64,000 nt of DNA from Candidatus Bathyarchaeia archaeon (GTDB taxonomy: Archaea; Thermoproteota; Bathyarchaeia; Bathyarchaeales; DTEX01): contig JAVZNR010000004.1 of assembly GCA_038882715.1 (NCBI GenBank), positions 46,809-110,808 of the forward strand. The letters run 5' to 3'. The notes under the pieces were generated by a model. That model searched no databases. It saw only the letters and a program-made list of their open reading frames with translations, and was not told where the DNA came from. Both the position numbers and the translations under genes were made by a program. The first letter of the stretch is position 1. Each line of letters starts with the position of its first letter. This document shows, one piece after another, positions 2-35,386 of the stretch.

Positions 2-2116
2 GAGCACTGCTCATGGGCTCATCCGAGCCATCCTAAAGAGGCCACCGAGAAGGCTAAAGAATTAGTTAAAATGGCTGTTGCAAAGGCTAGGCTTCTTCAA
101 CCCTTAGAGCCAATAAAAGTTCCAGTGACTCCAACAGCCTTAGTGATAGGCGGAGGAATAGCTGGCATAAACGCGGCCCTAGATTTAGCGGAAATGGGGT
201 TCAAGGTTTACCTCCTTGAGAAGAAGGAGAGTATAGGCGGACATATGGCCCAGCTGGACAAGACGTTCCCAACGCTTGACTGCTCCATCTGTATTGAAGG
301 GCCAAAGATGGTCGATGTCGCTCGCCACCCGAATATTGAGGTAATTTCTTTTGCTGACCTGGTGAAGGTTGAGGGTTATATCGGCAACTTTAGGGTCATT
401 ATTAGAAAGAATCCACGCTATGTCCTAGAGGATAAATGCACTGGCTGCGGTGAATGCTCAGCGGTATGCCCAATAGAGTATCCTAATGACTGGGATATGA
501 ACTTAGGCGTCAGAAAAGCCATATCCGTACCATTCCCGCAAGCTGTCCCATTAATTTATAGGATAAACCGAGACTACTGCATCGAATGCTATAAGTGTGT
601 TGATGCATGTGGACCACGCCAAGCAATAAACTTTGATCAGAAGCCTGAAGAAATAGAGCTTAAGGTTGGCACAATAATCGTTGCGACGGGATACGATATT
701 TATTTGCCGGAAGAAGGTAACCTTTATGGTTATGGTAAATACGCTAATGTTATAACCAGCTTAGAGTTTGAGAGACTAATACTCGCCGCTGGGCCTACAG
801 GCGGACACGTTGTGAGGGCGTCTGATGGAAAAAGGCCTAGCGTCGTCGCATTTATTCAATGTGTTGGCTCAAGAGACGTCAATAAGTATCCCTACTGTTC
901 AAACTTCTGTTGCATGTACACACTTAAACACACGATTCAGCTCAAGGAGCATTATGGTGACGACGTAGAGGTTTACGTATTCTATATGGATATGCGTAGC
1001 CACTTTAAAGGATACGAAGAATTCTATCAAAGGGCTAGAGAGATGGGTGTTAACTTTATTAGGGGCAGAGTTTCGAAGATAGTGGAAGACCCGAAGACGA
1101 AGAACCTCATAATACACGCGGAGGATACGTTACTCGGGGAGCCGATAGAGCTGGAAGCTGAAATGGTTGTTCTCGCAACCGCAGCGATACCAAGCGGGGG
1201 GTCAGATGAACTCGCCCGGCTCTTAAATGTATCAAGGGGGGCAGACGGCTTCTTTCTGGAAAGCCATCCAAAACTCAAGCCGCTAGACACCGCTGTTGAT
1301 GGGATATTTCTGGCTGGAGCATGCCAAGGACCGAAAGACATCCCATATAGCGTTGCTCAGGGATGCGGTGCGGCGGCTAGAGCTGCAACAATATTATCTA
1401 AGCCTTCGGTTACAATAGACCCGATAATAGCCGTTATAGACCCTGAGAAATGTAGGAACACTAAGGTTAAGTGTGGCATATGTGCAATGAAGTGCCCCTA
1501 TGGCGCCATAAAAGCTGAGCTAGGACGGCCAGCTGAAGTCACACCGGCCATGTGCCATGGATGTGGAACATGCGTCGCCGAGTGTCCAGCTGACGCAATA
1601 ACTCAGATGCACTTTACGGATGCACAGATACTTGCGCAGATAGATGCTGCCCTAGAAAATAATCCCGAAGACAAGATTCTTGGAATTTGTTGCAACTGGT
1701 GCGCTTATGCTGGTGCAGACCTCGCTGGAACAAGCCGCTTCGAGTATCATCCAAATATCAGAATCGTTAGAGTCATGTGTTCTGGGCGCGTTGACAGAGA
1801 CTTCATACTATATGCCTTTAGAAAAGGCGCTGGAATGGTTCTCATAGGCGCCTGCCACCCCTATGACTGCCATTACATTGATGGAAATTTAAAGATGAGG
1901 GTTAGAATGGATGCTTTGGCTAAAGCTTTAGAAAAACTTGGCTTAACGCCCGATAGGTTCAGGGTTGAATACGTGTCTGCAGCAGAGGGCGTAAAATTTG
2001 CACAGATAGTTCGAGAGATGGCGACCAAGCTTAAAGAGATTGGCCGCGATAGGATAATTCAAGAAAACGAGAAACTGCGTCCACATCTAGAGCGCATGCT
2101 GGGCAGGAAAAGATAG
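2..2116 (+). CDS. hdrA: heterodisulfide reductase subunit A (HdrA) fused to a C-terminal MvhD-like domain; 5' end lies outside the window
   Basis: The frame of ORF 71..2116 stays open back to base 2 (EHCSWAHPSHPKEATEKAKELVKMAVAKARLL, a conserved HdrA N-domain/linker motif). GGGIAG FAD fold, TLDCSICI motif and four CxxCxxCxxxCP ferredoxin motifs are present. The C-terminal CNWCAYAGADLAG...RVMCSGRVD...GACHPYDCHY matches the MvhD signature. Confidence 0.85.
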   Translation, partial: EHCSWAHPSHPKEATEKAKELVKMAVAKARLLQPLEPIKVPVTPTALVIGGGIAGINAALDLAEMGFKVYLLEKKESIGGHMAQLDKTFPTLDCSICIEGPKMVDVARHPNIEVISFADLVKVEGYIGNFRVIIRKNPRYVLEDKCTGCGECSAVCPIEYPNDWDMNLGVRKAISVPFPQAVPLIYRINRDYCIECYKCVDACGPRQAINFDQKPEEIELKVGTIIVATGYDIYLPEEGNLYGYGKYANVITSLEFERLILAAGPTGGHVVRASDGKRPSVVAFIQCVGSRDVNKYPYCSNFCCMYTLKHTIQLKEHYGDDVEVYVFYMDMRSHFKGYEEFYQRAREMGVNFIRGRVSKIVEDPKTKNLIIHAEDTLLGEPIELEAEMVVLATAAIPSGGSDELARLLNVSRGADGFFLESHPKLKPLDTAVDGIFLAGACQGPKDIPYSVAQGCGAAARAATILSKPSVTIDPIIAVIDPEKCRNTKVKCGICAMKCPYGAIKAELGRPAEVTPAMCHGCGTCVAECPADAITQMHFTDAQILAQIDAALENNPEDKILGICCNWCAYAGADLAGTSRFEYHPNIRIVRVMCSGRVDRDFILYAFRKGAGMVLIGACHPYDCHYIDGNLKMRVRMDALAKALEKLGLTPDRFRVEYVSAAEGVKFAQIVREMATKLKEIGRDRIIQENEKLRPHLERMLGRKR

Positions 2117-3537: not shown

Positions 3538-3855
3538 TTAGCCTTTCAACTTAAAGATTTTATGCAATTTAAGCGGCTCGCTTGCATAAACGAAAGGGAC
3601 ATATTTTATATCCATTAAGGGCAAAGGGTTGTTGGCGAAAAGGTCATTCGCCAAAGATTTGGACATTTCTTCTATCCAAAACAAAGGCGAGGCAGCATCT
3701 TTCAGCGAAACGCGCCAACCAGCAAGCAGGAGCTCTTCCTGAAATTGGGCTTTCTGCCTAATGGCTCTATTTTTCAGCCAGCTCCCGATGGTAAAAAATC
3801 GTGAGAGCAGATAAAAAGGGAGGAAAATGGAGAGTTTAGGGCCATCTTCTGTCAA
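3538..3855 (-). CDS. hypothetical protein (possibly not real)
   Basis: 105-aa ORF filling the 340-bp space between the DUF2148-like gene and the glycoside hydrolase, overlapping the upstream gene by 20 nt. No motif recognised. Confidence 0.25.
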   Translation of the reverse strand: MTEDGPKLSIFLPFYLLSRFFTIGSWLKNRAIRQKAQFQEELLLAGWRVSLKDAASPLFWIEEMSKSLANDLFANNPLPLMDIKYVPFVYASEPLKLHKIFKLKG

Positions 3856-4435
3856 AGTATATGTTCTTTCCTCTAGATGAGAGCGGTATCCCTATAATGA
3901 TTGTTGCTTCAGGAATTAGTTTCAGCTTCATGGCCGCTGCGCCTATATGATACATTATTCTGTTATCAATATTTAGGATACTGGCAATTTTAGCCGCCGA
4001 ACCGAGAGCTATCCCTAAATCCAATGCCTTAAATACGCATGTCGGGCCCATGAAATCCTGCCCCACTTTCTTCTGCTTCTCCTCAAACTCCCTGCAGTCT
4101 TTACTGCCGCATGCGCCGCAATTTAATCCAGGGCTTCTATCCCCTCTGACACCTATCAGAACGACGGCTTCAGAATTCTCTACGCTTATTGCATCGCGTT
4201 CAAATAGGCTGGCGCTTCTTTCCTTCGCCATTTCTCTCATTTTTTCAGCTATAGCATTTTTCTCAGCACCATAAACAATTAATGTTAGAACATCATCGAC
4301 CCCTCTAGTTTTAGGCGCCGTTCTCGCAGCAACCTGCATAAGTCTTGCAACATCGATTATTGCCTCTTTTTCTCCTTCTTTGCTCTTAATTATCGGGCTC
4401 ATTCCGGCAACACCAAACCCTAGTCTAAAAGACAT
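3836..4435 (-). CDS. DUF2148-type ferredoxin-domain protein
   Basis: AARTAPKTRG, cysteine cluster GLNCGACGSKDC, and GPTCVFKALDLGIALGSA. It lies 32 nt downstream of the radical-SAM gene on the same strand. Confidence 0.6.
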   Translation of the reverse strand: MSFRLGFGVAGMSPIIKSKEGEKEAIIDVARLMQVAARTAPKTRGVDDVLTLIVYGAEKNAIAEKMREMAKERSASLFERDAISVENSEAVVLIGVRGDRSPGLNCGACGSKDCREFEEKQKKVGQDFMGPTCVFKALDLGIALGSAAKIASILNIDNRIMYHIGAAAMKLKLIPEATIIIGIPLSSRGKNIYFDRRWP

Positions 4436-4467: not shown

Positions 4468-5547
4468 TTAAAGTGTTAAGGCGATCTCTCTCTGTATGGC
4501 TATGATGTCTTTTACGTCGGGGTCTTTCGGATAATTATATATTGGGCCCCTTGGGTCCTCATTATAATAGGGTCTGTTGCAGCCCGGGCATCCGCTGGTC
4601 TTAAATGGCTCACCGGTTAAAATTATCTTCTTTAAATCTTCGTAGGGCACTCCGAAGCTGATCAGCCGTCCATCTTTGAAAACCATGTCCTCGTAACGTT
4701 TTATTCCACGCGTTATAAGGTAATGCGCTATCTGAACCCTGCGGTAGTAGGTTATGGGCGGCCTCGGATAGTTAGCCATCCTCGTACCTTGTACAGGCGT
4801 GAATGCGAAGAGGGCTGGAAAAATCCCCTGATCTACACACCTTTGTATCATGGAGATAAACTCTTCTTCGCTCTCGCCTAAACCAGCTATGAGATGCGTT
4901 GTAACTCTTCCTCTTCCAAAAACCTTAATGGCATCTTTAAGTGCGCTGAGATGATGGTTCCATCTGTATGGGCCACCAGCTAACTCGCCCTTAACTCTGG
5001 AAAAAATTTCTTCCGTTACAGCGTCCAACGATATACTAATTCTTTCGACGCCAACCCTAGACAACCTGATCATATCTTCAACTGTAAGCGGCTGGCATGA
5101 AATGGATATCGGAACTTTACAGGAAGACCTTATTTTAGAGACTAACTGCTCTAGGTCGCGCTGAACGCCATAATAATTAAGCGCCTGGATGCAAACTCTC
5201 TTTATCTTCTCATTTTCCACAGATTTTTTAATACCGTTTATAACATCATCAACCTTAAAATCCGGCCATATAACCCTCGACAACATGTCCGCTCTTGACG
5301 TGCTGTCTTTGGCTTGCGGACAGAAGGCGCAGTTAGCTGAGCAGCGCCCCTCCCTATACGTAAGCAGGTATACCGTTGTAGGCTCAGCGCTAACAACGCC
5401 CTTCACTAAGCCTAAAACTATTGCTGAGCCCACCGAGACCCTAACCCTCTCCACCCCTTTCAACGCAGCCATCCCGCCATAATATTTTAGTTTAATCATG
5501 TCTCTCCTTTTATACCCTTTTTTGTCCAGAAGAATCCTAGTGCGCAT
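4468..5547 (-). CDS. radical SAM protein, BioB-like fold
   Basis: CSANCAFC (CxxxCxxC) SAM-cluster motif, GLGESEEE, FTPVQGTRM and a C-terminal CPGC pair. It is a paralogue of ORF 8250..9233. Confidence 0.8.
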   Translation of the reverse strand: MRTRILLDKKGYKRRDMIKLKYYGGMAALKGVERVRVSVGSAIVLGLVKGVVSAEPTTVYLLTYREGRCSANCAFCPQAKDSTSRADMLSRVIWPDFKVDDVINGIKKSVENEKIKRVCIQALNYYGVQRDLEQLVSKIRSSCKVPISISCQPLTVEDMIRLSRVGVERISISLDAVTEEIFSRVKGELAGGPYRWNHHLSALKDAIKVFGRGRVTTHLIAGLGESEEEFISMIQRCVDQGIFPALFAFTPVQGTRMANYPRPPITYYRRVQIAHYLITRGIKRYEDMVFKDGRLISFGVPYEDLKKIILTGEPFKTSGCPGCNRPYYNEDPRGPIYNYPKDPDVKDIIAIQREIALTL

Positions 5548-8249: not shown

Positions 8250-9233
8250 TTGAGGAAATCGTCGATTAAGGAAAAAGTTGACGATCTCTGGAAGGGTATC
8301 CATGAAGCGAGGGAAATTAGCTGGCAAATATTTGGGAGAAAAATGTACTTTTATGTGCCGGGCTTCACGTATTATAGGTATTTTAAGTCTTCTCCGACGG
8401 CTTTTCCATCGATATCGATTACAGGCTCCTTCTGCTCTCTAAATTGTGATCATTGCGGCGGAAAAATTCTCAGAACTATGATATCGGCCACGACACCAAG
8501 CAGGTTGATAGAGGTCTGCTCTAGTCTGAAAAGGAACGGCGCGATAGGTTGCTTGATTAGCGGGGGCTGTTTGCCTAATGGCTCTGTCCCCATAGAAAGA
8601 TTTATCGACGCTATATCTGAAGTTAAGAGGAAACTAGGATTAACTATCGTGATGCATACCGGTCTGATAGACTTTGAAACCGCTAGAAGACTTAAGGAAG
8701 CTGGCGTAGATGCAGTATCAGTTGACATAATTGGCTCAGAGGAGACCGTTAGGGAAATATATCATCTCAATGCTTCGCTCGATAAGTACGCTGAAACTCT
8801 TAAAGCCTTAAAGCAGTCTGGAATACCGTTCACCCCGCATGTTCTTGTCGGGCTACATTACGGTGAAATACGGGGAGAGATCAAAGCCGTAGAAATGATT
8901 TCAAAGTATGAGCCATCAGCCTTAATCATAATAGTGTTCTTCCCGATCAGAGGAACGAGAATGGAGTCCGTTAGCCCACCATCGCCAGAAACAGTAGCAG
9001 AGATTATTTTGAGAGCCCGTTTCCTAATGCCTAACGTGCCAATCGCGCTTGGGTGTGCGAGACCTAAGGGGGCTCATAGATCCGTAACCGACGTATTAGC
9101 CATCGAATCCGGCGTTAACGCCATAGCTTTCCCAAGCATCGAAGCTATAGAGAGAGCGAAACTCTTAGGTCTAGAGACAAAGTTTTCTCAAACCTGCTGC
9201 TCCCAAATACACAGAGACGCTAGAGCGCCCTAA
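8250..9233 (+). CDS. radical SAM protein, BioB-like fold (paralogue of 4468..5547)
   Basis: ITGSFCSLNCDHC (CxxxCxxC), ISGGC, and FFPIRGTRM, which parallels FTPVQGTRM in the other gene. TTG start from the ORF track; start uncertain. Confidence 0.75.
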   Translation: MRKSSIKEKVDDLWKGIHEAREISWQIFGRKMYFYVPGFTYYRYFKSSPTAFPSISITGSFCSLNCDHCGGKILRTMISATTPSRLIEVCSSLKRNGAIGCLISGGCLPNGSVPIERFIDAISEVKRKLGLTIVMHTGLIDFETARRLKEAGVDAVSVDIIGSEETVREIYHLNASLDKYAETLKALKQSGIPFTPHVLVGLHYGEIRGEIKAVEMISKYEPSALIIIVFFPIRGTRMESVSPPSPETVAEIILRARFLMPNVPIALGCARPKGAHRSVTDVLAIESGVNAIAFPSIEAIERAKLLGLETKFSQTCCSQIHRDARAP

Positions 9234-11746: not shown

Positions 11747-12169
11747 TTATTCTATTATCACAGGGATTTCATGAAAGTTTTTTCCATTAAACTCATAAGC
11801 TGCGATTCTATAGTCTGTGGAGGATACTATCAGCCATATGCTTTCGGGCCACAGCGTCATATATTTCAGATCTCTCACCGAGGGCTTTATATCTCCAGAA
11901 TGAGAGTGAAAGAAACCTATATGTTGAAGACCTTCCTCCTCTGAATCAAGAAACGCTTTCAGGAATTCTTCAGGATCTATTTGAAACATGATCTCTGATC
12001 TAAGAATATTTTTTAAGATAACTACTTTAACCACGCGGGCTTCATTCTCACGGATTAATCCAAATAGTGCACCGCATATCTCTATGGGGTGTTCTTCCCG
12101 CGCTCTATTCGCCAGTAATTTGACGTGCTTCTTGTTTAACCTGAGAATCATTCCGCTTCCTCTAAACAT
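11747..12169 (-). CDS. JAMM/MPN+ metalloprotease (SAMP/Urm1 deconjugase-like)
   Basis: E30 (PIEICG) and H88-S-H90-x6-S97-x2-D100 (HSHSGDIKPSVRD), a JAMM motif with a 6-residue spacer. It starts 10 nt downstream of the E1-like gene. Confidence 0.8.
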   Translation of the reverse strand: MFRGSGMILRLNKKHVKLLANRAREEHPIEICGALFGLIRENEARVVKVVILKNILRSEIMFQIDPEEFLKAFLDSEEEGLQHIGFFHSHSGDIKPSVRDLKYMTLWPESIWLIVSSTDYRIAAYEFNGKNFHEIPVIIE

Positions 12170-12179
12170 ATCTTCACAT

Positions 12180-13331
12180 TCATATTATTCTTTGAACTGA
12201 TATCCCCAATTCACCAACCATTAAATCTAAGAATGATTTGTAGGCTTCCTCACCATTTTTTGCCCCCTCAATTATGGTTACCCCACTCTTTAAAACACTC
12301 GTTATGCCCCCAAACTCATTAAAGAAGGTTATTCCGAGCTCAGCCTTCACCTTGACCTTAAGGCCGCGCTCGCTAACTATCGTCGCAAGCCTATCTAAGT
12401 CGAGGTTAAGATTATCCCTAGGAGTTATTCTGAAGACCCTTCGTCCCTGTCTAGGATGCCCTTCAGATATCAATTTTCTCTCTAGAGGCATTGGTGAACC
12501 CGATGGGTTTAAACCGCATACCGGGCAGCTATCAACTCTACGTATCTCTATTTCTTCAAAGGATAAATCCCCAATATCACAGTAAAGCAGTTTGCCGGCT
12601 AAACGGGGCTTTTTGCCAAGAATTATTCTGATAGCTTCGGAAACCTCTATGCCTGATATCACGCTTAACAAGGATGTGTGAACACCCACGGTAGCGCACA
12701 TAGGTAACGTCTCGTCTCTGATGTTACCTTGAAAGCACTCAAGACACGGGGTTTCGCCGGGTATGATCGTTGTGACGTTGCCAAAAGTCATTATGGCAGC
12801 CGCGAATACATAGGGTATGCCAAGCCTCTGGCAAGCCCTATTTATCGCGTATCGCGGGGCCATTCTGTCAAGTCCATCAACAACGACATCTACGCCCCTA
12901 ATATTTTCTTCCGCATTCTCAGCGCTAATCGATGCGGGTATTGGTTCAACTTCTACATTAGGGTTTAATTCCTTTAATCTCTTGGCGGCGATCTCAACCT
13001 TAGGATACCCGATATTTTTTGCGCCATAAAGCAGTTGCCTATGTAGATTTGAGAGCTCCACAACATCCTGATCAATTAGACGTATATGCCCAACGCCTAT
13101 TGCAGCTAATTGTAGGGCGGTTGGAGAACCTAGGCCGCCCAATCCGGCGACGCAGACGCTTGACCCTTTAAGCTTAAGCTGCCCTTCGTAGCCTATCTCT
13201 GATAAGGCAATCTGCCGTGAGTAGAGCTCAAGCTCTTCATCTGAAAGGGTCTCGCTTTCAGCCCTATAATTCATAACTTGTCCTCCCATAAAAATTGCAT
13301 TGGCGCGTTCATTTAGATTTATCTTAAGCAA
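12180..13331 (-). CDS. ThiF/MoeB/UbaA-type E1-like ubiquitin-like-protein activating enzyme with an extra ~108-aa C-terminal domain
   Basis: YSRQ, the nucleotide loop GLGGLGS, SNLHRQ, two CxxC pairs (C196/C199, C269/C272) and candidate catalytic C212 (PMCATVGV). Residues ~275-383 are Cys-free, so this is not a catalytic rhodanese. Confidence 0.85.
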   Translation of the reverse strand: MLKINLNERANAIFMGGQVMNYRAESETLSDEELELYSRQIALSEIGYEGQLKLKGSSVCVAGLGGLGSPTALQLAAIGVGHIRLIDQDVVELSNLHRQLLYGAKNIGYPKVEIAAKRLKELNPNVEVEPIPASISAENAEENIRGVDVVVDGLDRMAPRYAINRACQRLGIPYVFAAAIMTFGNVTTIIPGETPCLECFQGNIRDETLPMCATVGVHTSLLSVISGIEVSEAIRIILGKKPRLAGKLLYCDIGDLSFEEIEIRRVDSCPVCGLNPSGSPMPLERKLISEGHPRQGRRVFRITPRDNLNLDLDRLATIVSERGLKVKVKAELGITFFNEFGGITSVLKSGVTIIEGAKNGEEAYKSFLDLMVGELGISVQRII

Positions 13332-13389
13332 TAAATATTTAGCCTTAAATATGATAGGCTATAATCGGCGGGTCTCTGTGTGATAGAAA

Positions 13390-14970
13390 ATGGCTGATAT
13401 ATGTCTTATCTTCGAGGTTCATCAACCTTTAAGGTTAAATCGCAGCTTTAACATGGAACTTCTCTCCAGAGGGAACGTTAGCATAAGCGATCTTTACAAA
13501 ATATACTTTGATGAAAAAACCAACAAAGAAATTTTTCTAAGGATCTGCGAGAGATGCTATCTTCCAGCGAGTAAGATAATATTGGAGCAGATAAATAAAT
13601 TTAGAGGGGGGCGAAACGAATTTAAAGTCTCATTTAGCTTCTCCGGGGTTTTTCTTGAGCAATGTGAAATGTGGAGCCCTGGCCCTGGTCTTCTCGATAT
13701 ATTTAAGCGGATGGTTGAGACAGGGTGCGTTGAACTGCTTTGCCAAACATATTATCACTCTCTTTCTAGCCTAAACACTGTCGATCGCTCAGAGTTCCCA
13801 GAACAAGTTGAGATGCACCGTGAGACTATAAAGAAGTTGTTTAACTATACACCGGAGACTTTTGAGAATACCGAGTGCATATATAACAATGAGATCGCGG
13901 AAAAAGTCGAGAAGCTTGGGTTTAAGGCGATAGTGACTGAAGGCGCCGATAGGATACTCGGCTGGAGGGCGCCGAACTTCGTCTATAAGGCTAAGGGCTC
14001 CTCCATCAAAGTCTTATTACGTAACTATAGGCTTTCCGATGATATAGGTTTTCGCTTCGCCTCAACCAAGTGGGATCAATGGCCCCTTACGGCAGATAAA
14101 TATGCGTCTTGGCTGGCACATACGCCTGGTCAAGTCATAGTCCTATTTTTAGATTATGAAACCTTCGGCGAGCATTATTGGGCCGAGAGCGGTATACTTG
14201 AATTTTTAAGATGGCTGCCTACTGAGGTTTGCAGGTGGGGAAATCTGCGTTGGGTAACGCCCTCTGAAGCTATTGAAAAACATGCTCCATGTGACATGAT
14301 AGATGTTCCGCCGGAGAAGACGATTTCATGGGCTGATGCTGAACGTGACACCAGCGCTTGGCTAAGTAACCCGCAACAGCAGATATCATTCAGCCTGCTT
14401 AATGAAATCGGCTTATTAGTTAAAGGGTTGAATGATAGCGACTTACTAAGGATCTGGCGCTACTTACAGATAAGCGATCACTTCTATTACATGTACACTA
14501 AAGGCGGCGAATCCGGCATAGTCCATGACTCGTTTAACCCTTACGGAAACCCTATTGAGGCCTTCATAACATATATGGGCGTGCTACTCGACTTTGAAGC
14601 CAGATGCAAAGCTGAGGTCAGTAAACCGGAATTTAAACATGTGCAGTTATTGAGACGTGTACCAGCTGGCAGAGAATTTAGGTTCTTCTATATGTTTGCT
14701 TCTCCCACGGACATAATTGCTGGCAGCCTTCAAGAGTTTTATGATGCCCTTAAAAAAGTGAGCGCTGAATCAATAGATTTTCATATGAGGCGAGGAGATT
14801 TTGAAAAGTGGATCGCCAACGTGATAGGTGATGCGGAGTTAGCTGCAAAGATAGAGAAACTGCCAAGAATTTGGGAAGATAAGGAAGATCTTCGGCGCGC
14901 ATTAGTAACCCTCCTTGAAGAAAGAATAAAGGAGTTGAAAGGAAAACATGCGAAGACAGTTGCTAAGTAA
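13390..14970 (+). CDS. glycoside hydrolase family 57 protein (alpha-amylase / alpha-glucan-active type) with an extra C-terminal module
   Basis: GH57 regions are present: FEVHQP, GCVELL..TYYH, ENTECIYNNE (candidate nucleophile Glu) and FLDYETFGEHYW (candidate acid/base Asp). C-terminal residues ~424-516 are homologous to ORF 21338..21901. Confidence 0.8.
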   Translation: MADICLIFEVHQPLRLNRSFNMELLSRGNVSISDLYKIYFDEKTNKEIFLRICERCYLPASKIILEQINKFRGGRNEFKVSFSFSGVFLEQCEMWSPGPGLLDIFKRMVETGCVELLCQTYYHSLSSLNTVDRSEFPEQVEMHRETIKKLFNYTPETFENTECIYNNEIAEKVEKLGFKAIVTEGADRILGWRAPNFVYKAKGSSIKVLLRNYRLSDDIGFRFASTKWDQWPLTADKYASWLAHTPGQVIVLFLDYETFGEHYWAESGILEFLRWLPTEVCRWGNLRWVTPSEAIEKHAPCDMIDVPPEKTISWADAERDTSAWLSNPQQQISFSLLNEIGLLVKGLNDSDLLRIWRYLQISDHFYYMYTKGGESGIVHDSFNPYGNPIEAFITYMGVLLDFEARCKAEVSKPEFKHVQLLRRVPAGREFRFFYMFASPTDIIAGSLQEFYDALKKVSAESIDFHMRRGDFEKWIANVIGDAELAAKIEKLPRIWEDKEDLRRALVTLLEERIKELKGKHAKTVAK

Positions 14971-15680: not shown

Positions 15681-16928
15681 ATGGAGATAGCCTTCTTCGT
15701 ATACGAGTTTCCGCCCTACATCGTTGGCGGGCTTGGGACGTACGCTGAATACTTAACGAGAGAGCTTGTTAAAATGGGGCATGACGTGACTGTTTTCGCA
15801 ATGCATACTAGGGATGCTCCGACAAGAGACATATATGGCGGTGTTGAAGTACATCGCCCGATAGTTGAAAACATGAATATCAGCCTGCTGTTACCCATGT
15901 TTATACCTGAAGAAATACAGCGTTGGACGGAGAGCGGCAAAAAATTCTTTGGGGACATCTTCCTCTACAACATACTTTCAGCGAGCAAGCTAGTGAACGA
16001 TTTAGTCAGAATGGAGAGAAGAAAAGTTGATTTAATTGTTTCACATGACTGGTTGGGTTCAATAGGTGGAATATTAGCCAGCAGGGGACTAGGTAAACCA
16101 TTTGTTTTCCATGTACATAGCACAGAGCAAGGGCGAACTGGCGATGGTTCGGATACTATTAAGCGTTTAGAGCGCCTAGCAGCCGATTTTGCTGAGAGAA
16201 TTATAACCGTAAGCTATGCTATGAGAGATCATCTTGTGAGCTTAGGTTACGACGAGAAGAAGATTCGGGTAGTCTACAATGGAATAGACGCTGAAAAATA
16301 TGCGCCTGAAAACGTTTCTCCAGAAGAAAGGCTATCCCTGCGGAAGAGTCTAGGCATAGCTGAAGATGAATTCATGATACTTTTTATAGGTAGGCTAACC
16401 TGGGTTAAAGGCGCGGACACTTTAATACTCGCCATGCCGGAGATTTTGAGCAGAGTGCCTAAGGCAAAGCTAGTTATAGTTGGTGTTGGGGAGCAAGAGG
16501 AGCTGCTGAAGGAGGAAGTTGCTAGACTTAACTTATATGATAAAGTAATCCTGAAATACGAGTTTCTGCCCGAGGATATGAGGATAAAGTTTTATGCTGC
16601 GGCTGACGTATGCGTCTTTCCATCCAAATATGAGCCGTTCGGCATAGTATGCACTGAAGCTATGAGTATGGGTAAACCTGTAGTTGTCGGCGCTAGAGGT
16701 GTAAGCGGCTTAAGGGAGCAGGTTGTCCCCTCTGGTCCGAATCAATGCGGTTTCCACATTAACCCCTATGATCCAAGCGACATAGCTAAATTTGTGTCGA
16801 TTCTCTTAGAGAGCGACGAGTTAAGGAAGAAGTGCGGCATCAATGCTAGGAAAAGAGTTTTAGAGATGTTTACATGGAAAACTGTCGCGGAAAACACCAT
16901 CAGAATATACAAGGAGGTTGCTCAGTGA
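15681..16928 (+). CDS. GT4 (group 1) glycosyltransferase
   Basis: N-terminal YEFPPYIVGGLGTY, and the C-terminal GT-B retaining signature FPSKYEPFGIVCTEAM (E-x7-E). Confidence 0.85.
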   Translation: MEIAFFVYEFPPYIVGGLGTYAEYLTRELVKMGHDVTVFAMHTRDAPTRDIYGGVEVHRPIVENMNISLLLPMFIPEEIQRWTESGKKFFGDIFLYNILSASKLVNDLVRMERRKVDLIVSHDWLGSIGGILASRGLGKPFVFHVHSTEQGRTGDGSDTIKRLERLAADFAERIITVSYAMRDHLVSLGYDEKKIRVVYNGIDAEKYAPENVSPEERLSLRKSLGIAEDEFMILFIGRLTWVKGADTLILAMPEILSRVPKAKLVIVGVGEQEELLKEEVARLNLYDKVILKYEFLPEDMRIKFYAAADVCVFPSKYEPFGIVCTEAMSMGKPVVVGARGVSGLREQVVPSGPNQCGFHINPYDPSDIAKFVSILLESDELRKKCGINARKRVLEMFTWKTVAENTIRIYKEVAQ

Positions 16929-17267: not shown

Positions 17268-18434
17268 ATGAATATATGTATGCTCAGCTGGGAATATCCC
17301 CCTAGAATAGTTGGCGGAATATCTAGACACTGCCATGGTTTAGCAAGAGCTCTTACAAAAATGGGGCATTCAGTACACTTGATCACATTAGATTTTCCCG
17401 GAGCACCATATTACGAAGAGGAAGAGGGCGTGAAGATACATAGAACTGCCATAGAATTAGGGCATCCAAACTTTATTGTCTGGGTCTTCCTCTTTAACCA
17501 TTTTATGGAGAAAAAAGTTGCTGCGATAAGAAAACATGAAAAGTTTGAAATAGTCCACGCTCACGATTGGCTTGTGGCTCCCGCCAGCATATCATCAAAA
17601 CATTATTTGAACGTGCCGCTTATCTCAACCATACACAGCACTGAGGTCGGCAGGTCGCGTGGTCTTCACAACCCGGATTCCTACCTGATTGATGGAATAG
17701 AATGGTGGCTGACCTACGAGTCAAAGAGAATTATTGTCGTGAGCAACTCTATGAAGTATGAGGTTAAAGAGCATTTCCGCCTCCCGGATGAAAAAATTGA
17801 TGTTATTCCCAACGCTATTGACTCGTCAAAGTACAGTGTTACGGTTAACCGTGATGAGGTGAAAAGGCGTTTCGGTATAGATCCATCTGAGAGAATAGTT
17901 CTTTTTATTGGAAGGCTTGTTCCGCAGAAGGGTGTAGAATACTTAATTATGGCTGCACCAAAAATAATTGGCCAGCATCCTGAGGCCAGAATAGTTATAG
18001 TTGGAGATGGTTGGTCGAAGGAGTATCTGCTGAATTTAGCGTCTTCAACTGGATGCCAGCATAAAATAACATTCCTAGGATTCTTATCAGACCAGGAATT
18101 AATTGAGTTAACTCTAAGTTCAGACGTTCTTGTTGTTCCGTCTGTTTATGAGCCGTTCGGCATAGTCGCCCTAGAGGGAATGGCGGCCGGAGTGCCAGTT
18201 GTAGCGAGCAATACTGGTGGTCTGTCTGAGATAATTGAGCATGATAAAACTGGTTTCTTAGCCTTTAGGGAGAACCCGGATTCGATAGCTTGGGGGGTCA
18301 ACAAGATACTCTCTGATCCAGGTTATGCGTCGTGGCTTACGCAAAATGCTAAAAGGAAGATCAATGAAGTATATAGCTGGGATGCAGTGGCGAGGAGAAC
18401 TGTTGAAACATATGAGAAGGCTCTTAAGGAGTGA
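17268..18434 (+). CDS. GT4 (group 1) glycosyltransferase (paralogue of 15681..16928)
   Basis: WEYPPRIVGGISRH, VPSVYEPFGIVALEGMAAG and GGLSEII. Confidence 0.85.
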   Translation: MNICMLSWEYPPRIVGGISRHCHGLARALTKMGHSVHLITLDFPGAPYYEEEEGVKIHRTAIELGHPNFIVWVFLFNHFMEKKVAAIRKHEKFEIVHAHDWLVAPASISSKHYLNVPLISTIHSTEVGRSRGLHNPDSYLIDGIEWWLTYESKRIIVVSNSMKYEVKEHFRLPDEKIDVIPNAIDSSKYSVTVNRDEVKRRFGIDPSERIVLFIGRLVPQKGVEYLIMAAPKIIGQHPEARIVIVGDGWSKEYLLNLASSTGCQHKITFLGFLSDQELIELTLSSDVLVVPSVYEPFGIVALEGMAAGVPVVASNTGGLSEIIEHDKTGFLAFRENPDSIAWGVNKILSDPGYASWLTQNAKRKINEVYSWDAVARRTVETYEKALKE

Positions 18435-21337: not shown

Positions 21338-21901
21338 ATGGGGGAAATGAGCGAGGTTAAAATAGAGATCTTGAAATTCTTGTGGCAGTTTAATAGACCC
21401 GCCCGCTTAAAAGAAATATCTGAAGGAGTTGGTTTAGAAAAACGCTCGGTTAACATGCATCTCCTTAATCTTAAGAGGAAAGGTTATGTGAAGGCGCTCG
21501 GCGATGGTCTCTACGCTTTAACGGATTTGGGCAAAGAATTTTTGGGTTTTCCCAAAATTGATGAAAGCTTAGCTAGAAAAATTTTAAGCAAAGTTCCCTT
21601 TGAATTCGCTTTTCACTTCTATATTAGGGAGAACGAACCGCTGAACATTTCCTCGGATAGCTTAATTGAATTACGTGATAGAATTAGGGAAATAGACGCA
21701 AGATCCTTGGAGTTTCATTTCTTTCGAGGAGATTTCGAGAACTGGATTTCATTTCTAGGCGACTTAGAGCTCGCTAGTAGACTGGAGCTCATAAGAAAAT
21801 CTGACATCTCTAGCGAGGATCTTAGAGGGAAAATTTACGAATGCATAAAAGCAAGGTGCGACGAGCTCTTAAACCTCTGCGGAATTAAAAATGGCACTTA
21901 A
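21338..21901 (+). CDS. winged-helix DNA-binding protein fused to a ~95-aa module shared with the GH57 C-terminus (I believe this corresponds to Pfam DUF5752; unverified)
   Basis: N-terminal wHTH (ILKFLWQFNRPARLKEISEGVGLEKRSVNMHLLNLKRKGYV). Residues 86-178 align with GH57 residues 424-516, for example SLEFHFFRGDFENWISFLGDLELASRLE versus SIDFHMRRGDFEKWIANVIGDAELAAKIE. Confidence 0.6.
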   Translation: MGEMSEVKIEILKFLWQFNRPARLKEISEGVGLEKRSVNMHLLNLKRKGYVKALGDGLYALTDLGKEFLGFPKIDESLARKILSKVPFEFAFHFYIRENEPLNISSDSLIELRDRIREIDARSLEFHFFRGDFENWISFLGDLELASRLELIRKSDISSEDLRGKIYECIKARCDELLNLCGIKNGT

Positions 21902-34135: not shown

Positions 34136-34420
34136 CTAACCGCCATGCACGACGGGGATAAGGACTATTTCGTCTCCATCTTTAATCCGCGTTTCTAAAC
34201 AATCTATCAGATTTATATCCTTACCGTTGACAAGTATTATCGTGTTAGGGCGCGGATCCTTCAACTCTGGATCTAGCAAGACATCTCCTAGCGTGTTTAT
34301 CTCCTCTAAAATTCTTTTAATGATCTCCTTAATCTTTAATTCTCCATCTAAATTAAGAGATACCTCATCCCTTCCAGAGACTTTTTTCAGCACCCCTAAC
34401 ATTCGAATTTTAATTCCCAT
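34136..34420 (-). CDS. MoaD/ThiS-fold small ubiquitin-like protein (SAMP/Urm1-like) ending in Gly-Gly
   Basis: 94 aa with beta-grasp-like pattern and C-terminus ...DGDEIVLIPVVHGG followed directly by the stop. Confidence 0.75.
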   Translation of the reverse strand: MGIKIRMLGVLKKVSGRDEVSLNLDGELKIKEIIKRILEEINTLGDVLLDPELKDPRPNTIILVNGKDINLIDCLETRIKDGDEIVLIPVVHGG

Positions 34421-34458: not shown

Positions 34459-34797
34459 CTATAATTTTAAGGTTGTTAACCCCATTCTTCTTAAAAATTC
34501 GCTGAGGCCTTCACAATCGTCTATTTCAAATAGGTGGCTCAGGCAACCACAATCCGATGAGCCAAAACTTTTCACTGGCTTATATAGTTCGCCCATGGCC
34601 CTCGCCAATAAGCATTCCTCAGTTTTTGGAGCCGCCTTAAAAAATACGCCTAGAATCTTTACATGCTCATTATTAAGCAGGTAATCTATATGCCAAAATA
34701 TCCGTTTCTCTTTGCTGAAATGTCTAGCCACCCTTTTCTCTAAGCTGCTTTGAGCTGAACCTACGTAAGCGTAGAGCCCGCTACCGAAGGTTAGCAC
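34459..34797 (-). CDS. DUF123 / GIY-YIG-superfamily protein; annotated GTG start is probably not the native N-terminus
   Basis: GLYAYVGSA...RHF, WHIDYL and a Cys pair (CGC). The same frame stays open upstream to 34878 and encodes GIYVLVISVEKEINIRVGSLG, but the only ATG (34871..34869) is one frame off. Confidence 0.65.
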   Translation of the reverse strand: MLTFGSGLYAYVGSAQSSLEKRVARHFSKEKRIFWHIDYLLNNEHVKILGVFFKAAPKTEECLLARAMGELYKPVKSFGSSDCGCLSHLFEIDDCEGLSEFLRRMGLTTLKL

Positions 34798-34840: not shown

Positions 34841-35386
34841 ATGACTAATACGTATATACCTCTCGTTTCATCGCCCCCTCAAAATCTAAGTGCGCTTATA
34901 TTTATGGTCAACATATATTATAGTGTGCTCAGTCATCTAGTAATAAGGAAAGCTGAGAAATCAGACTTAAAAAGATTATATGAGATAGAGGTTAGATGCT
35001 TCCGCGAAGACGCTTTTCCATATTCTTTTATAGAGCGGTTTGTTGAGGATCCTGAGTTTATAACGTTAGCTGCCATATTGGAGAATAAAATTGTCGGGTT
35101 TATAGTGGCTTCTATAGAGATTTTTAAGAGTGAACGTGTTGGACACATATATTCCATAAATGTTGAGCCTGAATATAGGCGAAGAGGCATAGGGTCGCGC
35201 CTGTTAGAATCAATGGAGGAAAGTTTAAGGAAGCGTGGAGCTAAAGCATGTTATCTAGAAGCGCGTAAGGATAATATTGCCGCCATAAACCTATACCTTA
35301 AGCACAAATATTCTGTCGTCGGGATTTTAAGAAATTATTACGGTGCTGGAAGCGACGGGATAAAATTTATGAAAGTTTTAGAGTAA
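34841..35386 (+). CDS. rimI: GNAT N-acetyltransferase, RimI / archaeal Ard1-like
   Basis: IRKAEKSDLKRLYEIE and the acetyl-CoA motif RRRGIGSRLL. A more likely start is the in-frame ATG at 34904, which would also remove the overlap with the DUF123 gene. Confidence 0.75.
   Translation: MTNTYIPLVSSPPQNLSALIFMVNIYYSVLSHLVIRKAEKSDLKRLYEIEVRCFREDAFPYSFIERFVEDPEFITLAAILENKIVGFIVASIEIFKSERVGHIYSINVEPEYRRRGIGSRLLESMEESLRKRGAKACYLEARKDNIAAINLYLKHKYSVVGILRNYYGAGSDGIKFMKVLE

Follow-up and report, generated by a model that had tools for sequence, protein, structure and literature searches.

Enzymes of the E1 type work at the junction of sulfur-carrier chemistry and ubiquitin-type tagging, and many of those found in prokaryotes have been known for more than a decade to carry a domain resembling the TATA-binding protein (TBP), the role of which is hypothetical. 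Here we analyze one such enzyme, which is encoded together with a JAMM/MPN+ metalloprotease in a 64,000-nucleotide stretch of DNA (hereafter the window) from a member of the Bathyarchaeia (contig JAVZNR010000004.1). Its assignment as an E1-like enzyme that activates a ubiquitin-like protein (Ubl) or sulfur carrier, its membership in the known E1 plus TBP-like type, and its pairing with a JAMM protease are firmly supported. The window E1 and its closest relatives are differentiated from the remaining family by the loss of a cysteine that is otherwise nearly universal in the C-terminal module.

The architecture itself has been described computationally. In section 3.3 of their paper, Makarova and Koonin (2010) presented it as arCOG01676, an E1 with a C-terminal TBP-like domain, and noted Ubl-E1-TBP fusions in the Thaumarchaeota (PMC2948915); fusions of this kind were also recovered from the protein library searched here (P0164, P0216, and P0221). 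Brindefalk et al. (2013), in their treatment of these proteins, named a "ThiF-MoeZ-MoeB group" whose members have a TBP domain at the C-terminus, stated that experimental information on it is lacking, and cited Burroughs, Iyer, and Aravind (2009) for computationally identified TBP-domain proteins (PMC3597702). A search of the searchable literature returned no later functional study of E1 plus TBP-like proteins. The layout occurs in archaea as well as in bacteria, and the TBP-like domain is a recognized feature of MoeB-like enzymes. The window E1 has the same MoeB/ThiF core and single TBP-like domain as these described proteins but differs in lacking both the hairpin cysteine considered below and nearby sulfur-relay genes.

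Several other systems are close enough for comparison. The UbaA-SAMP1/2/3-HvJAMM1 system of Haloferax volcanii shares with the window an E1 of the same family, a beta-grasp protein ending in Gly-Gly (GG), a JAMM/MPN+ protease, and the absence of an E2 or E3, which in the window holds for the approximately 40 of 67 ORFs scanned. It differs in that UbaA (model length 270) has no C-terminal module, and the UbaA-, desampylase-, and SAMP1-type scores of the window proteins fall below the curated cut-offs, while the JAMM motif of the window is one residue shorter. Uba4, MOCS3, and MoeZ have a linker-tethered C-terminal module on a MoeB-like core, as does the family studied here, and the cysteine-bearing relatives of the window E1 resemble them further in having one conserved cysteine in that module, with sulfur-relay genes nearby. 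In Uba4, MOCS3, and MoeZ, the cysteine is located in the active-site loop of a rhodanese domain, whereas that of the relatives is located in a hairpin attached to a TBP-like fold, and the window protein has no cysteine there. The protein-thiocarboxylate clusters CysO-CysM-MoeZ-Mec+ of Mycobacterium tuberculosis and HcyS-HcyF-HcyD-MetY-Sir of Wolinella, reportedly described by Burns in 2005 and by Krishnamoorthy and Begley in 2011, have a gene set in common with the cysteine-bearing relatives: a Ubl, an E1, a JAMM protein, sulfite reductase, and PALP or homoserine-pathway enzymes.

The E1-JAMM gene pair and its C-terminal module

The E1-like adenylyltransferase gene is found on the minus strand at 12180..13274. 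Its longest open reading frame (ORF) extends to a TTG at 13331 and encodes 383 aa, and residues are numbered on this ORF throughout. The true start is probably the ATG at 13274 (M20, giving 364 aa), because homologs are about 363 aa long and a Shine-Dalgarno-like GGGAGGA (13281..13287) is present 7 nt upstream of that codon. The nearest relatives are in metagenome-assembled genomes (MAGs) of the Bathyarchaeia. A first-pass annotation, made from the letters of the window, had recognized an E1 of the ThiF/MoeB/UbaA type, and its assignment is borne out. Pfam ThiF (PF00899) matches residues 37-271 with E=6.2e-73 (245 bits against a cut-off of 28), and the Rossmann-type adenylation core (12519..13223, minus strand) contains GLGGLGS at residues 63-69, two zinc-binding CxxC pairs (C196-x2-C199 and C269-x2-C272), and C212, the residue aligned with Cys184 in the crossover loop of E. 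coli ThiF. All five cysteines are 100% conserved, both in the window clade (defined below) and in the remaining family, and no variation is seen among 63 homologs in the ATP-binding columns R, Q, D, N, and R. The closest solved relatives are E. coli ThiF (1e-44) and MoeB (3e-42); an AlphaFold2 (AF2) model of the full-length protein (pLDDT 91.7, pTM 0.91) matches both in Foldseek with a TM score of 0.95 over about 246 columns and a root-mean-square deviation (rmsd) of 1.5-2.2 Å. The E1 scores below the equivalog cut-off of four NCBIfam models, namely MoeB (NF006444; 228 against 449), ThiF (TIGR02356; 216 against 275), the SAMP-activating UbaA (NF047750; 215 against 450), and the MoeB/ThiF subfamily PRK12475 (NF009123; 170 against 510), and therefore no specific functional name can be assigned to it.

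The E1 stop codon (TGA, 12182..12180) is followed after 10 nt by the ATG, at 12169, of the JAMM/MPN+ metalloprotease gene (11747..12169, minus strand; 140 aa). To judge from its homologs, translation may instead begin at M7 (12151), giving 134 aa. The protein matches Pfam Prok-JAB (PF14464) with E=1.8e-14 (54 against a gathering score of 25) and JAB with 6.2e-5. An end-to-end alignment with the desampylase model of NCBIfam, which is of the HvJAMM1 type (NF041370; positions 1-131 of 133), has an E-value of 8.6e-22 and scores 77.5 bits, below the cut-off of 130. The catalytic E30 (12080..12082, minus strand) is present, as are H88, H90, S97, and D100 of the motif HSH-SGDIKP-S-VR-D (H-S-H-x6-S-x2-D; 11870..11908, minus strand). 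The slightly atypical spacing of this motif, six residues against the canonical seven, had been remarked on in the first-pass annotation along with the 10-nt gap, and both are borne out; the motif was found in 17 related JAMMs, and 16 of these have the same six-residue spacer, which marks it as a trait of the family rather than a mistake. Nor is the pairing due to chance: in 16 related genome loci, six of them outside the window clade, the E1 has a JAMM gene as its next downstream neighbor. These results support the earlier description of the pair as an E1-like activator and a JAMM/MPN+ protease of the sort that archaeal SAMP/Urm1 systems employ, and a SAMP-like framing appears reasonable.

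The C-terminal extension of the E1 (residues 275-383) contains no cysteine and, as the first-pass annotation stated, is not an active rhodanese domain; a rhodanese reading was rejected because the extension has no rhodanese match in Pfam or NCBIfam, a different fold, and no cysteine. The extension scanned alone matched nothing in Pfam or NCBIfam, a word-indexed homolog search with it alone gave no match, and Pfam TBP (PF00352) did not match the E1 protein at E<=1. A profile built from 41 homologous extensions placed about 30 TBP entries on top when compared with all PDB sequences (best 1mp9, E=4e-5), in alignments that span H1 to H2 and set SG..(I/V)EGA..EEA against SGK..TGAKS.EE of TBP; the same profile recovered a genuine TBP from a library of 1.84 billion proteins. 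AF2, supplied with the homolog alignment, modeled the extension with a pLDDT of about 90-97 as a two-strand hairpin, a helix, four strands, and a long helix, in that order. Foldseek matched this model to TBPs in the PDB with a probability of 0.99 over about 83 columns (rmsd about 3 Å) and also to the TBP-like N-terminal domain of RNase H3; a TBP-like fold had been among the options that the first-pass annotation listed for such a search.

On the strength of the TBP profile matches, the AF2 topology, and the Foldseek probability, the extension is predicted to consist of a linker, a hairpin, and one TBP-like domain, all encoded on the minus strand. The Pro-rich linker (residues 273-286; 12474..12515) joins the E1 core to the C-terminal module; it has no regular secondary structure in AF2, and its pLDDT is lower, 62-79 in the C-terminal-only model. 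The beta-hairpin (residues 288-302; 12426..12470), with its strands defined by AF2, contains the invariant E290, R294, and F300. The single TBP-like (helix-grip) domain, H1-S2-S3-S4-S5-H2 by profile search and Foldseek, follows at 12183..12425. The module shares with TBP the S1-H1-S2-S3-S4-S5-H2 topology and an SG...GA(K)..EE signature; TBP has two repeats, whereas the module has one, with an extra N-terminal strand, and is fused to an enzyme. Its position is topologically the same as that of the rhodanese domain of MoeZ, MOCS3, and Uba4. We found no solved structure in which the E1 core occurs along with a TBP-like module.

The first-pass annotation had called this extension uncharacterized. 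The description stands in that the extension alone matches no family, but the architecture is already in the literature and NF009123 spans it: with the full-length protein, positions 3-329 of the 338 in the model align to the core and the greater part of the extension, and divergent family members are aligned over their whole length. These alignments suggest, short of proof, that PRK12475 contains the TBP-like domain. The extension is thus largely what the annotation had said would make it uninteresting, a common and already annotated domain of MoeB-like enzymes. Makarova and Koonin suggested small TBP-like proteins as GG-ended modifiers (PMC2948915); we rejected this for the TBP-like part here, since the proteins end in ...QRII or ...SNIE and not in GG.

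The hairpin cysteine and its genomic context

The hairpin has the family consensus E-x-C-G-R-x-G-K-R-V-F. Its cysteine is present in 67 of 67 E1s from genome loci that do not belong to the window clade. Of 89 representative library clusters covering the column, 87 have it, and one of the other two is a misalignment with a cysteine three residues on. The cysteine was also seen by eye in four divergent members of 341-344 aa and in one Ubl-E1-TBP fusion. The window protein has His292 at this position (codon 12456..12458, minus strand). We define the window clade by at least 65% identity (L004 and L006-L016); among its 12 full-length members, the column holds His in nine and Thr, Tyr, and Cys in one each. 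In a neighbor-joining tree, midpoint-rooted and without bootstrap support, the clade is monophyletic and nested in the family. The three invariant hairpin residues, together with P304, G333, S349, and G350, are common to the clade and the whole family, and the clade has in addition its own fixed N-E-F-G-G-x-T loop between S3 and S4. Because the module is tightly conserved, with clade-specific motifs, and the core is unchanged, with C212 and the zinc ligands retained, these sequence patterns indicate a change of function in the window clade and not decay; the gene is a derived paralog.

The genomic context of the two groups was compared in one genome per GTDB species, which yielded 80 E1 loci, mostly from the Bathyarchaeia and otherwise from the Brockarchaeota, Nitrososphaeria, Methanomassiliicoccales, and Chloroflexota/Anaerolineae (55-63% identity). 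ORFs were called, the genes within four positions of each E1 were clustered, and recurrent clusters were named with Pfam. Outside the window clade, the E1 has as neighbors a ThiS-family Ubl (24 loci), TusA (16 loci), sulfite reductase (12 loci, in 11 of which it is directly downstream), DsrE (10), cysteine desulfurase (nine), a PALP enzyme (eight), homoserine dehydrogenase (six), and ThiI (four); on a Freyarchaeota contig, PALP, ThiS, TusA, DsrE, E1, and ThiI occur in a row. Such a set of genes is that of sulfur assimilation by way of protein thiocarboxylates, for which CysO/MoeZ/Mec+ and HcyS/HcyF/HcyD/Sir are examples.

The window clade has a conserved order of a different kind, with a GH57 gene on the opposite strand followed by the E1, JAMM, proB, and proA, and of the genome loci in the clade only L011 lacks a JAMM gene directly downstream of the E1. 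In comparison with the thiocarboxylate clusters, only the E1 and JAMM are still together, with GH57, proB, and proA as neighbors, and no Ubl or sulfur-relay neighbor family was found within four genes of the E1 in the window-clade loci. Three MAGs contain both paralogs: JAGTQL01 (L012 and L038), CALKGV01 (L013 and L037), and CAYPJR01 (L014 and L032). The cysteine-bearing copies L037 and L038 are part of a cluster of Ubl, homoserine dehydrogenase, E1, sulfite reductase, and TusA. What is new here is modest: the near-universal hairpin cysteine, its sulfur-relay neighborhood, and its loss in a JAMM-linked paralog. The parts of the two earlier papers that deal with the architecture mention neither this cysteine nor its loss (PMC2948915, PMC3597702).

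Other members of the family show further variation. The Bathyarchaeia MAG JAWBOR01 has three E1 plus TBP-like paralogs (L021, L024, and L030), each in a different setting: Ubl, E1, JAMM, Sir, TusA; Ubl, E1, Sir; and Ubl, E1, JAMM. In the Brockarchaeota/Thaumarchaeota-type genes (L020, 5935..7158; L024, 4790..6028; L026, 7917..9128; L031, 757..1968), which are directly upstream of sulfite reductase, the protein is extended by a further 20 aa or so that include four cysteines (..ACESICEAEHCQV..TNCPFL), and L020, L026, and L031 have a second ThiF-type gene a few kilobases downstream. The Chloroflexota/Anaerolineae genes (L028, L029, L039, L040, L044, L054, L057, L059, L072, and L083) group together in the neighbor-joining tree, and this grouping, with their 55-63% identity, suggests transfer between archaea and bacteria.

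A candidate modifier and the explanations for the gene pair

The candidate substrate of the E1 is a 94-aa ThiS/MoaD/Urm1-like beta-grasp protein ending in VHGG (34136..34420, minus strand), which had been singled out in the first-pass annotation as a GG-terminated protein and is confirmed by Pfam as a member of the family (ThiS 8e-10 and Urm1 8.5e-9, both above the gathering scores). Its matches to the NCBIfam models SAMP1 (4.5e-12, 46 against a cut-off of 60) and moaD_arch (5.9e-12) are below the cut-offs. No other ORF of 55-200 aa in the window is GG-terminated, a six-frame scan of the window gave no other Ubl-family match, and hidden Markov models of the neighbor clusters likewise detected one E1, one JAMM, and one Ubl in the 64 kb. 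The Ubl gene forms a trio with a DUF123 gene (34459..34797, minus strand) and a GNAT acetyltransferase gene (34841..35386, plus strand). The trio is kept around Ubl orthologs of 54-58% identity on other Bathyarchaeia contigs with different wider flanks (L086-L091), and the locus of an ortholog of 69% identity keeps the GNAT and Ubl genes without DUF123. This setting is neither a molybdenum cofactor (Moco) nor a tRNA-thiolation context.

The explanation that we favor, tentatively and at slightly less than an even chance, is that the E1-JAMM pair carries out SAMP/Urm1-like conjugation, independent of an E2 or E3, and deconjugation, with the C-terminal module serving as a docking platform and not as a persulfide relay. 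Its biochemical steps are ones we infer from the folds, motifs, conservation patterns, neighborhoods, and paralogy observed here. The E1, which by analogy to MoeB and ThiF is expected to be a zinc-containing homodimer, would bind ATP and adenylate the C-terminal Gly-Gly of a ThiS/MoaD/Urm1-type beta-grasp protein, perhaps the 94-aa protein, and the conserved crossover-loop Cys212 would be available for the next chemical step. In the cysteine-bearing relatives, the module would take a persulfide from a sulfur-relay protein (TusA, DsrE, or IscS) and transfer it to the adenylated Ubl to give a thiocarboxylate, which is the part played by a rhodanese. In the window paralog, where the hairpin cysteine is replaced by His, the persulfide relay would have been given up and the TBP-like module kept as a docking platform. 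Activation of the Ubl by the E1 would then lead to E2/E3-independent conjugation, and the JAMM protein could remove the Ubl from adducts or conjugates in the manner of a desampylase.

A number of points weigh against this explanation. The clade member L008 keeps the hairpin cysteine, six cysteine-bearing loci have JAMM as the next downstream gene, and the order E1-JAMM-proB-proA in the clade could be partly inherited synteny. The Ubls near the JAMM-linked E1s of L021 (1622..1984, minus strand) and L030 (3936..4310, plus strand) have a tail of about 26 aa after GGG, and Ubls in loci without JAMM stop at GG, except for one apparently frameshifted ORF (L027); in these two clusters, the only such cases, the pattern is consistent with JAMM acting as a C-terminal maturase, as HcyD does, and points away from deconjugation. 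The candidate Ubl is 21 kb from the E1 and is linked to it only as the sole candidate in the window, a distance that may simply reflect general synteny. Sets of E1, JAMM, and Ubl also occur in the purely biosynthetic thiocarboxylate pathways (CysO/MoeZ/Mec+ and HcyS/HcyF/HcyD). UbaA of H. volcanii performs both conjugation and sulfur transfer without an extra domain, and therefore the cysteine could be lost with sulfur transfer still retained; in sulfidic habitats, free sulfide might act as the sulfur donor. No experimental or biochemical study of any E1-TBP protein was found. The wider proposal, that the hairpin and TBP-like module constitute an unrecognized persulfide-relay device replacing rhodanese in E1-like enzymes that are widespread in archaea and bacteria, and that the window lineage is a cysteine-less, dedicated conjugation E1 with JAMM as its deconjugase, is doubtful when both parts are taken together.

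A purely biosynthetic role, well possible if not probable, would have the Ubl act as a sulfur carrier that receives its thiocarboxylate sulfur from free sulfide or a separate donor, with no protein conjugation, and delivers it to tRNA thiolation, molybdenum or tungsten cofactor, or cysteine and methionine synthesis; the JAMM protein would trim a C-terminal extension of the carrier or hydrolyze carrier-amino-acid adducts, as HcyD and Mec+ do. The sulfur-assimilation neighborhoods of the wider family agree with this, as do the Ubls with post-GG extensions in JAMM-linked loci, the best NCBIfam scores of the E1, which are to the MoeB and ThiF models, and the order Ubl, E1, JAMM, sulfite reductase, TusA in L021, which looks like an ancestral layout. 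According to Makarova and Koonin, arCOG01676 is linked with Moco, with ThiI, and with cysteine synthase (PMC2948915). The window clade itself fits less well: the near-universal cysteine is lost in exactly this clade, its E1s have no sulfur-relay or carrier families within four genes, and three MAGs with a window-type gene also hold a cysteine-bearing paralog. In addition, the sole Ubl of the window already ends in GG and so needs no maturase. The neighbor-cluster models found no TusA, DsrE, sulfite reductase, IscS, PALP, homoserine dehydrogenase, or ThiI in the 64-kb window, and MoaE was absent among the approximately 40 of 67 window ORFs that were scanned.

It is improbable that the basic TBP-like module binds nucleic acid and so couples Ubl activation directly to tRNA thiolation. 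The TBP-like fold family includes nucleic-acid binders, but the same platforms also mediate protein-protein contacts, as in the adaptin and COPG appendages (PMC3597702). The isoelectric point of the module is about 8.9 in the clade and 9.5 in the window protein, in contrast to about 5.3 for the acidic E1 core, and the net charge of the hairpin is +6.3 in the clade against +1.8 in the remaining family; in that remaining family, however, the module is near neutral, with an isoelectric point of 7.6. ThiI-type or PP-loop genes are found near some relatives, and tRNA modification has been proposed by Makarova and Koonin as an ancestral Ubl role (PMC2948915), but no tRNA-thiolation enzyme is adjacent to the E1 in the window clade.

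The first-pass annotation, which pointed to the ubiquitin-fold domain by which eukaryotic E1s recruit an E2, had proposed that the extension might be a beta-grasp or adaptor domain that recruits a substrate or partner. Beyond the location of the extension, C-terminal to the adenylation domain as in those E1s, nothing favors the reading of it as such a domain with an E2-like partner, and it was rejected: the predicted fold, a beta-hairpin followed by S1-H1-S2-S3-S4-S5-H2, and the best structure and sequence matches are those of TBPs. An E2 or RING protein was found neither among the scanned window ORFs, as the annotation had noted of E2 and E3 genes, nor among the recurrent neighbors of 79 loci, and we give the proposal almost no chance. 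No more credible is a role in anti-phage defense, as in CBASS Cap2/Cap3 or Bil systems, a reading we rejected because the PADLOC matches are partial and weak (Cap2 E1-E2 up to 75.6 bits, in the Rossmann-fold part only, and JAB up to 27.7) and far below MoeB/ThiF (228 bits), no E2 domain, cyclase, or effector is nearby, and the neighbors in conserved synteny are housekeeping genes (GH57, proB, and proA).

Other window genes and the significance of the gene pair

The GH57 glycoside hydrolase gene (13390..14970, plus strand) is divergent from the E1 gene, and the intergenic region common to the two contains an AT-rich, TATA-like stretch (13329..13352, minus strand), identified by eye only, upstream of the E1 start. 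DUF5752 is present both as a region at the C-terminus of GH57 and in a separate winged-helix protein (21338..21901, plus strand). With two GT4 glycosyltransferases (15681..16928 and 17268..18434), assigned from syntenic genes of L004, these have the look of a cluster for glucan metabolism that includes a regulator of its own. Elsewhere, the window encodes the two-component radical-SAM lipoyl synthase LipS1 and LipS2 (8250..9233, plus strand, and 4468..5547, minus strand), both above the NCBIfam cut-offs, a DUF2148 ferredoxin-domain protein (3836..4435), and an HdrA2-like protein (71..2116).

Considered by itself, the gene pair is unexceptional within a class that is already known. The combination of a near-universal cysteine, sulfur-relay neighbors, and a cysteine-less paralog that keeps its JAMM gene yields a hypothesis that mutants can test, persulfide relay or partner docking. 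The two MAGs in which a window-type gene occurs together with a cysteine-bearing paralog in a sulfur cluster offer a natural comparison for the separation of conjugation from sulfur transfer. If the module is indeed a relay device and the window lineage a cysteine-less conjugation E1, the family would provide a step that is usually only postulated between sulfur carriers and ubiquitin-type modifiers.

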